Source: an uncultured Nitrososphaerales archaeon (GTDB lineage Archaea > Thermoproteota > Nitrososphaeria > Nitrososphaerales > Gagatemarchaeaceae). Taken from it: DNA of 64,000 nt. The notes beneath the pieces are model-generated. The model was given only the letters and a program-made list of their open reading frames with translations, was not told the DNA's origin and searched no databases. The stretch's first letter is position 1; each line of letters begins with the position of its first letter. This document shows positions 33,159 through 63,368 of the stretch, piece after piece. The stretch is from contig OY970160.1 in the NCBI GenBank assembly GCA_963706445.1, forward strand, positions 96,001-160,000, given 5' to 3'. The translations under genes were made by a program, and so were the position numbers.

Positions 33159-34025
33159 GTGGACGAATGGGGGTTGCTGGGCGCTCCGATCTACACCCTC
33201 GCCAGCTACAAGGGGATGGGGGAGTCTCCGAGGGCGCTCAGGAAGCAGGGGATAGCCAGAGCCCTGTCTGTTCAATCTGACCTCGGTGACGTCGAGCTCT
33301 CTCCCTTGACGAAGGACGTCGTAGAAGGGAGGACGAAAAACCTGACAGCGTTCAGAGAGTCTACGAAGATGATCCATGCCGCTGCGAGGTCGGTCGCGGT
33401 CGAGAGGATCGTCGTACTTGGAGGCGAGTGCTCCGAGACTCTGGGAGCAATGGCGGGGCTTGCGGAGGCCTTCGGCGGCAAGCCGGGCATGCTATGGATG
33501 GACGCCCACGGTGACTTCAACACACCCGAGACCTCCCCCTCGGGGTACATCGGGGGGATGTGCCTTGCCCTCGCTTGCGGAAAGGACCACACACTCGATT
33601 TAGAGTTGGGCGACTCTCCGCCGCCATTGGCTGACGAACGCCTAGTTCATGTGGGGTCGAGGGCCCTGGACCCACCCGAGGTCGCCGCCTTCAATGCCTC
33701 GCCTGCCAAGTTGTACACCGCTCAGCAGGTGAAGAAGAGCGGGGCCGCCGATGTCGCCGAGGAAGCCGCAAGGCATCTCGAGAACAGGTCGGACTGGATC
33801 GCATGCCACCTGGACGTCGACGTCGTCGACCCAAAATTCGTTACATCGGTGAACTACCCAACCGCCGACGGGCTGACCCCCGATGAGGCGTCCATGATGA
33901 TTCGCAAGCTCGCAGGCACGCAGAAACTCAAGGTGTTGGAAGTAACCGCCTACAACGCGGCGAAGGACAGCGGCGGGTCTTCGGCCAAGGTGGTCATCGA
34001 ACTTCTGAAGTCCGCACTTGGATGA
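33159..34025 (+). CDS. arginase family protein
   Basis: GGECS, DAHGDFNTPETSPSG, HLDVDVVDP. Confidence 0.88.
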   Translation: MDEWGLLGAPIYTLASYKGMGESPRALRKQGIARALSVQSDLGDVELSPLTKDVVEGRTKNLTAFRESTKMIHAAARSVAVERIVVLGGECSETLGAMAGLAEAFGGKPGMLWMDAHGDFNTPETSPSGYIGGMCLALACGKDHTLDLELGDSPPPLADERLVHVGSRALDPPEVAAFNASPAKLYTAQQVKKSGAADVAEEAARHLENRSDWIACHLDVDVVDPKFVTSVNYPTADGLTPDEASMMIRKLAGTQKLKVLEVTAYNAAKDSGGSSAKVVIELLKSALG

Positions 34026-34041
34026 TCCGTTCACTCTCAAA

Positions 34042-34056
34042 AGTAGCGAGGGGTGG
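34042..34056. repeat. direct repeat of tRNA-iMet 3' end (partner at 34545-34559)
   Basis: AGTAGCGAGGGGTGG vs AGTAGCGAGGGGAGG, 14/15 identical, flanking the LAGLIDADG gene. Confidence 0.7.
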
Positions 34057-34078
34057 TTAAATATGTAAACCGCCTTGA

Positions 34079-34549
34079 TTGTTGTTGGCAACCCGGGAAG
34101 CTTGGCTCGCAGGTCTCATCGACGGCGAAGGTTGCTTTACTCTAAGTATTTCCGTACAGCACAAGCATTCCTTGCACATTTCTCCACGCTTTATCATATC
34201 AATGAGAGAGGGTGCTTGGGCCAAGGAGGTTGGAGAAATCCTCGAACTCCATCGGATCCCATTTCACGCTAGGAGGAGAAGAAACCAGATCGAAATAGTG
34301 GTTAGCAGCGGAGTCGCCGTAAGAAGATTGATTCAGTACTTACTGCCATATCTAGTCGTCAAGAAACCTCTTGCGGAGAGACTAAACGCGTTTCCAAAGG
34401 CCCCAGCAAGAAATCGATTCACATGGGTCGACGGTTCCTACTTGGACAGCATCTGCGACCTAGTAGACTATGTCAGAGAGTTCAACAAAGGAAAAAACAG
34501 GAAGCACAAGTGGGATGGAGCAGCCATCAGAAGGTTCTTCCATGAGTAG
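34079..34549 (+). CDS. free-standing single-motif LAGLIDADG homing endonuclease
   Basis: WLAGLIDGEGCFTLSI, PRFIISM, PYLVVKK; TTAAATA TATA upstream; AT-richer than neighbours. Confidence 0.88.
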   Translation: MLLATREAWLAGLIDGEGCFTLSISVQHKHSLHISPRFIISMREGAWAKEVGEILELHRIPFHARRRRNQIEIVVSSGVAVRRLIQYLLPYLVVKKPLAERLNAFPKAPARNRFTWVDGSYLDSICDLVDYVREFNKGKNRKHKWDGAAIRRFFHE

Positions 34550-34676
34550 CGAGGGGAGGACTTTCAGGAGAATTCTCTCCTTTTGAACCTCCGCTCTGCG
34601 GGTCTCTCGGCTTTCGCTTATGAGCCCGCCGGGATGATCCTTACCCCCACGGGGGGTCTGGCTTCCCCACCTCGCT
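34547..34676 (-). tRNA. initiator tRNA-Met(CAT) with three introns
   Basis: A1-U72 acceptor AGCGAGG/CCTCGCT, GGG/CCC anticodon stem; removing 18-, 15- and 21-nt inserts gives a 76-nt cloverleaf. Confidence 0.9.
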
Positions 34677-34720
34677 ACGATGAAGCCGGTAATGAAGCGC
34701 CCTTAAATCTTGCCCGCGAA

Positions 34721-34834
34721 TTATGTGGAAACCGGATAGGGCATGCAGGCCGCCCTGTAGTATCTGCAGCAGGTGCACTTCGAGCAGCTCTCGTAGTCCT
34801 TGTGCTTGCACACCCTGCAGATGCAGGACGCCAT
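34721..34834 (-). CDS. 37-aa Cys-rich metallothionein-like microprotein (not in ORF track)
   Basis: MASCICRVCKHKDYESCSKCTCCRYYRAACMPYPVST; ATG overlaps upstream TAA. Confidence 0.65.
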   Translation of the reverse strand: MASCICRVCKHKDYESCSKCTCCRYYRAACMPYPVST

Positions 34835-35400
34835 TATTTCGCGGCCTTCGATTCAGATTCTTTAATCTTCTCGAAGATGAGTTTCTCCGGGTCCTCTCCG
34901 AGTTCCTCCGCGATTCCCCCTTTCAACGCGAGAAGCCTCCCCACGTCGTGCGCCTTGGCTGTGAACCTGTTGACCTCCTCCCCGAAGGGCCTCACCCTGT
35001 CGGCGTCGACCATCTTGTCGGCGAAGCAGACAATCCTCTCTTCCAGGGTTCGGGGGATGTAATCGAAGTCGGGGAGCCCCAGCTTCTTCGCCTCGTCGGG
35101 GGATATCCCCGCCCCGACGTGCCTCCGGACGATTTCGACCACCTTGCTGTCGACCCCTTCGTTCTCGAGGATCTCTGCTCCCTCCGCCCCATGTCTGACC
35201 GTCTGGATCCGCGACCTCCCTATGTCGTGCAGCAATGCCGCCGCGATTACGGCCCTGGTGTCGACAGGGTGACCCCGGCGGGCGAACTCGTCTGCTATGA
35301 GCTTGGCCGCCATGGCGACCGCCTGGCAGTGCCTGACGATGTAGACCCCCGACCCGTACTTGGCATGAATCGACATGGCCTCCCCTTCGGAGGGGATCAC
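34834..35400 (-). CDS. HD domain protein (TIGR00295-like)
   Basis: HC.AV, LLHDIGRS, HGAEGAEIL, RHVGAGI, IVCFADK; GTG start overlapping tfe stop. Confidence 0.88.
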   Translation of the reverse strand: MIPSEGEAMSIHAKYGSGVYIVRHCQAVAMAAKLIADEFARRGHPVDTRAVIAAALLHDIGRSRIQTVRHGAEGAEILENEGVDSKVVEIVRRHVGAGISPDEAKKLGLPDFDYIPRTLEERIVCFADKMVDADRVRPFGEEVNRFTAKAHDVGRLLALKGGIAEELGEDPEKLIFEKIKESESKAAK

Positions 35401-35906
35401 TTGGCCAGTTCCTCTTCCAACTGTTTGATCTTCCAGCGGAGCGCGTCCTTCAGCTCGGCGTTGTCCAGTCGGTTCAGAGCTTTGCCGCAGGTCGGACACT
35501 TGAAGAAGTTCTCCATGGCGTCCTCGAAGGTCCTGGTGAGGCAGGTCGGGGTCCCGCAGTGGTAGAACTCGTGCATGTCCTCGAAGTCGAGCCTCTGTTT
35601 CAGCCTGTTGAGGACCTTCCTCCTCTGGGTCTGGATGAAACCATCAGTCTGGTCTCTCTGGGCCTTCCACCTATAGACGAACCACCCTCTCTTGGGGTCC
35701 CTGACCCTCACTCCGGTGATCAGGCTCCGACCAAAGAGGTCGTAGAGGGACTTCCTGACCGTCTTGATCTTCAGCCCCGTCGCCGAGGCAATCTCCTCGT
35801 CGGTTGCGTTCTCGTTGTTGAGTAGCGCCCTAGCCACGCGTACGTAGTCCGGGCCGCCGATGAGCCCTGCTACCTTTACAAAAGTGTCTTCGTACTCGAT
35901 TTTCAA
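35397..35906 (-). CDS. tfe: transcription factor E (TFIIE alpha)
   Basis: TDEEIA..TGL....VRK.LY.L, GWFVYRW, Zn ribbon FKCPTCG. Confidence 0.93.
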   Translation of the reverse strand: MKIEYEDTFVKVAGLIGGPDYVRVARALLNNENATDEEIASATGLKIKTVRKSLYDLFGRSLITGVRVRDPKRGWFVYRWKAQRDQTDGFIQTQRRKVLNRLKQRLDFEDMHEFYHCGTPTCLTRTFEDAMENFFKCPTCGKALNRLDNAELKDALRWKIKQLEEELAK

Positions 35907-63151: not shown

Positions 63152-63232
63152 CCCACGTGCAGATTACCGCTTCCGCATATAATTGTAACAATTAGAACAG
63201 AAACCAGCGAAACAATGCGTCTCATCAAGGTG

Positions 63233-63368
63233 TGGGGGTAGTCGGATTCGAACCGACGGTATACAGGTCTCTGCAGCTCCAATGCCTAATCATCCACGCT
63301 GCTGTGTCATCAAACTTCTTTGTTTGACCACTGGAGCCTGTCGCCTTGCCTGGCTGGGCCATACCCCC
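63233..63368 (-). tRNA. tRNA-Trp(CCA) with 62-nt intron (63269-63330) at 37/38
   Basis: GGGGGTA/TACCCCC acceptor, ACAGG-CTCCAG|A-CCTGT, GTCGG-TTCGAAT-CCGAC. Confidence 0.92.

Follow-up and report, generated by a model that had tools for sequence, protein, structure and literature searches.

A free-standing LAGLIDADG endonuclease gene at the 3′ end of an intron-rich archaeal initiator tRNA gene: a candidate homing element with a possible bearing on tRNA intron gain

In collaborative homing, described in T3/T7-like phages and a cyanophage, a free-standing endonuclease lies beside an intron (PMC10055350). In fungal mitochondria, mORFs are found at atp6 of Allomyces macrogynus and at atp6, atp9, cox2, and nad3 of Glomus (PMC3630166). 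The phage T4 enzyme SegB is a free-standing homing endonuclease whose gene adjoins tRNA genes and whose site includes the T-psi-C stem-loop motif (PMC2330249). In archaea, Sugahara et al. (2012) described an integrase element at tRNA-Thr of Caldiarchaeum subterraneum, with no mention of homing or LAGLIDADG (PMC3293823). For Asgard tRNAs, a 2026 preprint put copying, mobile elements, and reverse transcription to the test and stated that intron arrival "remains open"; homing and LAGLIDADG are not mentioned there either (10.64898/2026.10.13.758758). In the searched literature, which mostly lacked subscription papers, no description of LAGLIDADG or homing endonucleases with archaeal tRNAs or tRNA intron gain was found.

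We analyzed a 64,000-nt stretch of DNA (the window) from a member of the Gagatemarchaeaceae (Nitrososphaerota), a strain that occurs in peat and soil runs. The genome Nitrososphaerales SMAG_U12322 belongs to the same genus, and Ca. Gagatemarchaeum stordalenia, the source of the contig of locus L036 (G486), belongs to the same family. From left to right, the locus consists of an arginase gene, a 15-bp repeat, a TATA-like box, the nuclease ORF, a tRNA gene, and an HD-domain gene (Table 1). The ORF is free-standing between the arginase gene and the tRNA, outside the tRNA introns and unfused to a host protein. The first-pass annotation had described it as a 156-aa single-motif LAGLIDADG ORF outside any intron or intein, with a stop codon overlapping the last three nucleotides of a convergent initiator tRNA (tRNA-iMet) that carries three introns, one of them in the T-loop about 14 nt from the tRNA end, and these readings held. 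The stop codon TAG (34547–34549) is the complement of C71-T72-A73 of the tRNA. Removal of the three introns gave a 76-nt cloverleaf, which ARAGORN called as tRNA-Met(CAT), and the initiator identity was recognized by A1:U72 and three anticodon-stem G:C pairs. Because of its introns, the unspliced gene was missed by ARAGORN and Rfam; it was rebuilt by hand and then confirmed on the spliced form with ARAGORN. Between the 59/60 intron and the tRNA end are 14 nt, and the bulge-helix-bulge (BHB) of this intron, as read from the sequence, has a central helix TTCA/TGAA and two 3-nt bulges. No intact copy of the iMet T-arm was found in the host genome, and the T-arm is uninterrupted in only about 8 of 78 tRNA-iMet alleles family-wide, nearly all of which have a T-stem intron, a 59/60 intron, or both. 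In a whole-genome scan with introns allowed, ARAGORN also called an intron-containing tRNA-Trp in the window (63232–63368, minus strand).

The two copies of the 15-bp repeat, the second of which lies at 34545–34559, are identical at 14 of 15 positions and spaced by 503 bp. The unit between them contains the nuclease gene alone, with no integrase. The repeat is unique in the genome at ≤1 mismatch, and 0.01 chance matches are expected in the window, which rules out a chance repeat. In a 2024 soil run from a separate study, contigs spanning 33980–34172 and 34146–34852 with >99% identity reproduced both junctions, ruling out an assembly artefact. No empty allele, excised form, joint, or ORF RNA was seen in four runs with the strain, which gave low-depth contigs only and are uninformative in this respect.

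Table 1. Positions of the features at the tRNA-iMet locus of the window
Feature	Position	Strand	Remark
Arginase-family gene (flank)	33159–34025	+	Flank variable among nuclease-positive loci
Distal copy of tRNA-iMet 61–73 plus 2 trailer bases	34042–34056	−	Position 63 is A (T in the tRNA); outer limit of the ~503-bp unit
TATA-like box TTAAATA of the nuclease gene	34057–34063	+	Directly adjoins the repeat; putative function
Single-motif LAGLIDADG endonuclease gene, I-CreI-like fold	34079–34549	+	156 aa; probable start 34085 (154 aa)
Three-intron tRNA-iMet(CAT) gene, 130 nt with the discriminator	34547–34676	−	Sole copy found in the genome
21-nt bulge-helix-bulge intron, 59/60 (T-loop)	34561–34581	−	Nuclease-tied; putative immunity element
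15-nt intron, canonical 37/38	34604–34618	−	Without nuclease association
18-nt D-loop intron	34640–34657	−	Register ambiguous by ~1 nt; without nuclease association; intron-less alleles L007, L036, L052
HD-domain gene (flank)	34834–35499	−	Conserved gene upstream of the tRNA, with TFE and Trm56 after it; host marker

The locus shares with collaborative homing a nuclease gene that lies outside but adjoining an intron-split conserved gene, and the proposal for both systems is that the intron interrupts the target and may be acquired along with the nuclease. It differs in its chromosomal archaeal tRNA gene, its LAGLIDADG nuclease, and the terminal duplication of the host gene end. The partner of phage collaborative homing is a self-splicing group I intron, whereas the intron here is a 21-nt protein-spliced BHB intron. 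As in the fungal mORFs, which are mostly LAGLIDADG, an endonuclease ORF is flanked by a duplicated 3′ end of the host gene, and the gene is still functional. However, the host is an archaeal tRNA gene instead of a mitochondrial protein-coding gene, the duplication is only 13–15 nt long, the ORF runs antisense from a promoter of its own, and an intron, instead of a diverged coding end, apparently confers immunity. SegB is likewise a free-standing nuclease beside a tRNA and sets a precedent for T-arm targeting, but it is GIY-YIG, degenerate, active on a phage tRNA cluster, and without intron immunity or gene-end duplication. The Caldiarchaeum tRNA-Thr element is likewise modeled as a mobile element that delivers an intron-bearing tRNA end and leaves a tRNA fragment; in that model, it does so by integrase-mediated site-specific recombination, whereas no integrase is present here. 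I-CreI, I-MsoI, I-CvuI, and the archaeal intron-encoded I-Vdi141I share the fold, the motif, and the predicted first-helix dimer interface with the window nuclease but lie inside rRNA introns, and archaeal homing endonucleases of rRNA introns and inteins differ from it in the same way. By analogy, the arrangement would work like collaborative homing with the architecture of a fungal mORF, and it is a member of none of these classes as defined because of its BHB intron, tRNA host, and lack of an integrase. It may represent a variant form of homing element at an archaeal tRNA, with a specific and testable tie to the question of tRNA intron gain. Gene-end-replacing homing elements would then not be confined to fungal mitochondria but include one at an archaeal tRNA that is essential and single-copy, and a family of small I-CreI-like nucleases whose target can be predicted would become available.

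The protein is an ordinary single-motif LAGLIDADG protein. The ORF matched PF00961 (LAGLIDADG_1) with an E value of 9.5e-7 and 30.1 bits against a cut-off of 23.1. There are three in-frame TTG starts (34079, 34082, and 34085), of which the last, giving a leaderless gene of 154 codons, is favored because the spacing from TATA to start is 28–30 nt in homologues. The GC content of the ORF is 48%, compared with 58% for the genome. The motif reads LAGLIDGEG, and no variation was seen at G12, D15, G16, E17, or K95 across 42 sequences; the acid at that position of the LAGLIDADG motif binds the catalytic metal. The predicted model (pLDDT 93) has an alpha-beta-beta-alpha-beta-beta-alpha fold over ~150 aa and matched I-CreI in Foldseek (TM 0.73, E 2.6e-8). 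It superposes on I-CreI, I-CvuI, I-MsoI, and I-Vdi141I with TM values of 0.68–0.76 at an identity of only 14–20%. The predicted homodimer scored 0.74 against 0.00 for the best control, with contact agreement of at least 90% and pLDDT of at least 81, a mark reached by 20 of 30 solved homodimers and 1 of 23 monomers. The predicted interface comprises residues 4–17, 42–50, and 90–96, via the motif helix; the pass may stem from likeness to solved LAGLIDADG dimers. For the closest nuclease pairs, dN/dS was 0.07–0.22, indicating purifying selection, and synonymous sites were saturated (median pS 0.83). On sequence and predicted structure, this looks like a working nuclease.

The mobile element proposed in the first-pass annotation implied homologues at tRNA ends, empty sites in relatives, and a gene that is not vertically conserved, and all three were found. 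At 24 of 24 distinct loci with close homologues (57–83% identity), the gene is convergent at the 3′ end of tRNA-iMet, and the tRNA has the 59/60 intron at every one of these loci, L065 and L073 among them. A copy of tRNA 61–73 stands beside the promoter in all 22 homologous loci with upstream sequence, and a TATA-like box resembling that of the window is found at the same place in most homologues. The far flank differs by locus (arginase, cystathionine lyase, and membrane-protein genes), whereas the tRNA side is conserved. More distant homologues were tRNA-adjacent in 9 of the 10 cases inspected. Those with 40–49% identity (L038, L071, and L072) lie at other tRNA-Met genes with the same T-arm and a 59/60 intron, and the L317 homologue adjoins a weakly called tRNA-Met. 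Homologues with 35–40% identity (L152, L153, L320, and L322) lie at tRNA-Gln or tRNA clusters without the 59/60 intron, two of them with a trailing tRNA-end copy, and the L156 homologue has no tRNA linkage.

The nuclease gene is patchy: when each species is represented by one genome, it is present in 8 of the 76 iMet alleles parsed, and 68 are empty. Outside the Gagatemarchaeaceae, it was not found in the 401 class genomes searched. In IMG/VR, no close homologue was found (best match 39% over part of the protein; the matches were generic LAGLIDADGs), and no IMG/VR matches were obtained for family B. A side observation concerns L318:2850–3468, a 40% identical homologue whose start codon directly follows a tRNA-Met, in tandem and opposite in orientation to the arrangement in the window. 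This tRNA-Met shares the T-arm of the window tRNA and has 37/38 and 59/60 introns and an encoded CCA, and the 108-kb contig, with a DNA ligase gene and many small unannotated genes, is possibly a viral or plasmid vehicle. LAGLIDADG_3 matches are plentiful in Gagatemarchaeaceae genomes (up to ~30 per genome, many in long frames and probably inteins), with only 3–4 in the genome of the window.

The history of the gene was compared with that of its hosts, using quick or FastTree trees of the HD gene (with or without TFE), a marker that adjoins the locus. On the host-marker tree, the nuclease gene required 14–15 changes and was not significantly clustered (40 of 500 shuffles were as low). In reciprocal AU tests, for which the groups were picked after the trees were seen, the multi-genus nuclease clade of L036, L052, L262, L053, and L067 was rejected as a host clade (p-AU 4e-5), and the host clade around the window was rejected on the nuclease tree (AU 1e-4). 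In the same tests, congruence was rejected for L064, whose nuclease, but not its host, is nested among genus-g1 enzymes (AU 1e-5). Patchiness and tree conflict rule out an ancient vertical gene; the nuclease gene apparently moved between genera, and the cassette is very probably mobile. Two nuclease copies are frameshifted (L070 and L273), and decayed C-terminal remnants occupy the first ~60 nt past the tRNA end at L141, L144, L145, L148, and L149 (L144, blastn E 4e-5; L149, HMM E 0.004). Three of these five remnants stand beside a tRNA without the 59/60 intron. Frameshifts and remnants are consistent with a course of invasion, decay, and loss.

The 59/60 intron was present in 8 of 8 nuclease-positive and 34 of 68 nuclease-free alleles (Fisher p = 0.007), a genome-level count over the 76 parsed alleles, one genome per species, that ignores kinship. 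The other introns were not enriched with the nuclease (D-loop, p 0.68; 37/38, p 0.23; T-stem, p 0.05 in the depleted direction). The correlation between endonuclease and intron content suggested in the first-pass annotation therefore stood for the 59/60 intron and failed for the D-loop, 37/38, and T-stem introns. Among phylogenetically independent pairs (n = 9), 4.2 went in the same direction and 0 in the opposite one (median p 0.125); the pattern is exceptionless, yet not formally significant under phylogenetic pairing. Intron similarity tracked the nuclease beyond the host (partial Mantel r 0.28, p 0.03). The long intron of L067 resembles that of L262, a member of the same nuclease clade, and not those of its nearest hosts. 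At L064, however, the intron and the T-stem variant are like those of the host lineage and not like those of the relatives of the nuclease, and therefore the nuclease gene can arrive without bringing its intron. Spread of introns by the element, as first suggested, rather than a mere need for the intron, was thus weakly favored by the Mantel result, with L064 as a counter-example. In alleles with a T-stem intron, the stretch from the T-loop to the 3′ end is intact, and the gene was never present with them unless a 59/60 intron was there too, which points to a site at ~53–73 or to physical carriage of the intron. Together with the many empty alleles, the tree conflict, and the decay products within one family, this position-specific intron link is what the present analysis adds.

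The tRNA-end duplication bounding a unit of ~500 bp, as first annotated, was borne out in its identity and spacing, but it is not a simple target-site duplication. At 12 of 22 loci, the base at position 63 of the distal copy is not that of the functional tRNA, and the variant often follows the nuclease clade; the repeat is therefore not a fresh target-site duplication. In the functional tRNA, the 51:63 pair was matched in every case. Position 63 is the only position informative on the origin of the proximal and distal copies, and it suggests that the nuclease and the proximal part of the distal copy move together. The 10-bp core of the repeat is retained despite saturated synonymous sites in the nuclease gene and is therefore renewed at each transfer or selected. 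Given that the downstream flanks differ between hosts, the simplest role for the repeat would be to supply a right homology arm within the element itself; its position beside the TATA box might also make it an operator.

Other cassettes occur at the same tRNA end. A second LAGLIDADG family with a double motif (PF14528, E 5e-9) was observed at the 3′ end of tRNA-iMet at L055:1239–2051, L030, L294, and L291, with a fragment in L139 and in tandem with the window-type nuclease in L055–L057. A link of this family to the T-stem intron was considered but not adopted: three intact copies and one fragment have the intron, L291 does not, and the baseline is 44 of 68. A third small ORF family, with the motif LYWCEGxK, was observed at L022:1642–2055 and L306–L316. 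In these parallel cassettes, the distal tRNA copy is longer and has introns or stem variants different from the functional gene. The genes at L022, L030, L294, and L291 are followed by a 3′ tRNA remnant with introns unlike those of the functional copy, and therefore gene insertions at tRNA ends exchange intron sets. The L022 remnant, for instance, starts at the anticodon loop and lacks the 37/38 intron present in the functional copy. A foreign proximal and native distal copy is clear at L022, L030, and L294.

The window locus holds a homodimer-type LAGLIDADG gene with an intact catalytic motif, a promoter-like box, and a terminal copy of tRNA 61–73. With moderate confidence, we interpret it as a minimal integrase-free homing cassette, in which the dimer would cut intron-less tRNA-iMet across 59/60 and repair would copy the intron, the 3′ exon, and the gene. 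The recognition site of the enzyme would be ~20 bp long and would straddle the 59/60 junction of intron-less tRNA-iMet DNA, the candidate being either a T-arm pseudo-palindrome at ~48–68 or the stretch from the T-loop to the 3′ end at ~53–73; the palindromic symmetry of the candidates is only partial (14/21 to 16/23) and odd-centered. The cut would fall on an incoming or recipient allele, and repair would copy the donor from the conserved tRNA/HD side through the intron, 3′ exon, and nuclease gene. The distal 61–73 copy would then provide the sole homology to the broken 3′ end of the recipient, since the downstream flanks of different hosts are unrelated. The intron would split the site in DNA and be removed from RNA by the host splicing endonuclease, and the resident tRNA would therefore be both immune and functional. 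The intron, which the nuclease probably co-converts, would hitch-hike with the gene and persist or be lost once the nuclease decays. With the enzyme and the intron specified and a candidate site of 20–25 bp that can be reconstructed, the idea of a BHB intron as homing immunity becomes testable at this locus.

An alternative that we consider rather unlikely is that the intron acts as an immunity filter only. The nuclease would cut the intron-less site and settle only in hosts already carrying the 59/60 intron, moving by recombination in the 61–73 repeat without itself spreading introns. The host-like intron and position-63 variant of L064, whose nuclease is nested among genus-g1 enzymes, agree with this, as do the always matched 51:63 pair and the 59/60 intron present in half of the nuclease-free alleles anyway. 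However, intron similarity tracks the nuclease with the host controlled, the long intron of L067 follows L262 and not the nearest hosts, and the parallel cassettes visibly replace intron-bearing tRNA ends. Moreover, if all alleles were immune, there would be little homing to maintain a dN/dS near 0.1.

It is improbable that the unit is an integrase relic or passenger, with the repeats as attL and attR, a tyrosine recombinase acting in trans or since deleted, and the nuclease as cargo. The 3′ ends of tRNA genes are indeed classical att sites, the unit is bounded by ~14-bp repeats, and intron gain via an intron-containing attP was proposed by Sugahara et al. (PMC3293823), but a ~500-bp unit without integrase or other cargo is found in nearly all loci, no close homologue was found in viral contigs, and the presence of the intron at 24 of 24 loci and the purifying selection are left unexplained. 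A domesticated DNA-binding protein or defense factor that regulates the tRNA or cuts viruses carrying or targeting tRNA-iMet, with the repeat as operator only, is the least probable reading: purifying selection, an operator-like repeat beside the TATA box that could serve autorepression (equally possible for a homing cassette), and the known LAGLIDADG domestication of WhiA speak for it, but the gene is absent from ~90% of the family's alleles, was not found in other families among the 401 class genomes, is horizontally shuffled and repeatedly broken, and keeps its catalytic acid invariant. Both readings fit worse than the homing cassette and the immunity filter.

On the homing-cassette interpretation, free-standing nuclease cassettes at tRNA ends might be the missing vector for non-canonical archaeal tRNA introns, with each nuclease family matched to an intron position at which its target is broken up, 59/60 for the nuclease studied here, and successive invasions building multi-intron tRNAs, a generalization that we offer tentatively.

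The third ORF family was tRNA-adjacent in 10 of 11 homologous places inspected (Gly, Phe, and Glu), several with tRNA-end copies, and counted with tRNA-iMet, 11 of 12 places have the ORF next to a tRNA gene (iMet, Gly(CCC), Phe, or Glu). Where the tRNA is Gly or Glu, it is divergent, and an inverted tRNA 3′ remnant follows the ORF. No support for a LAGLIDADG identity of this family came from Pfam, from a profile comparison with the window-type nuclease, or from Foldseek, and VIA gave only weak Z values of 4.3–4.7, to I-DmoI, WhiA, and intein nucleases. Copies of the tRNA-iMet 3′ end that stand alone, far from the gene, were also observed at L300, L301, and L303 (G023, G005, and G052); these are possibly att sites of larger integrated elements, and the copy in G005 is 14 kb distant. 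At L291 (G484), the functional tRNA-iMet has no T-arm introns and precedes the double-motif gene with a changed T-stem pair, GAAGG/CCTTC, which is possibly a case of immunity by sequence change instead of by an intron.
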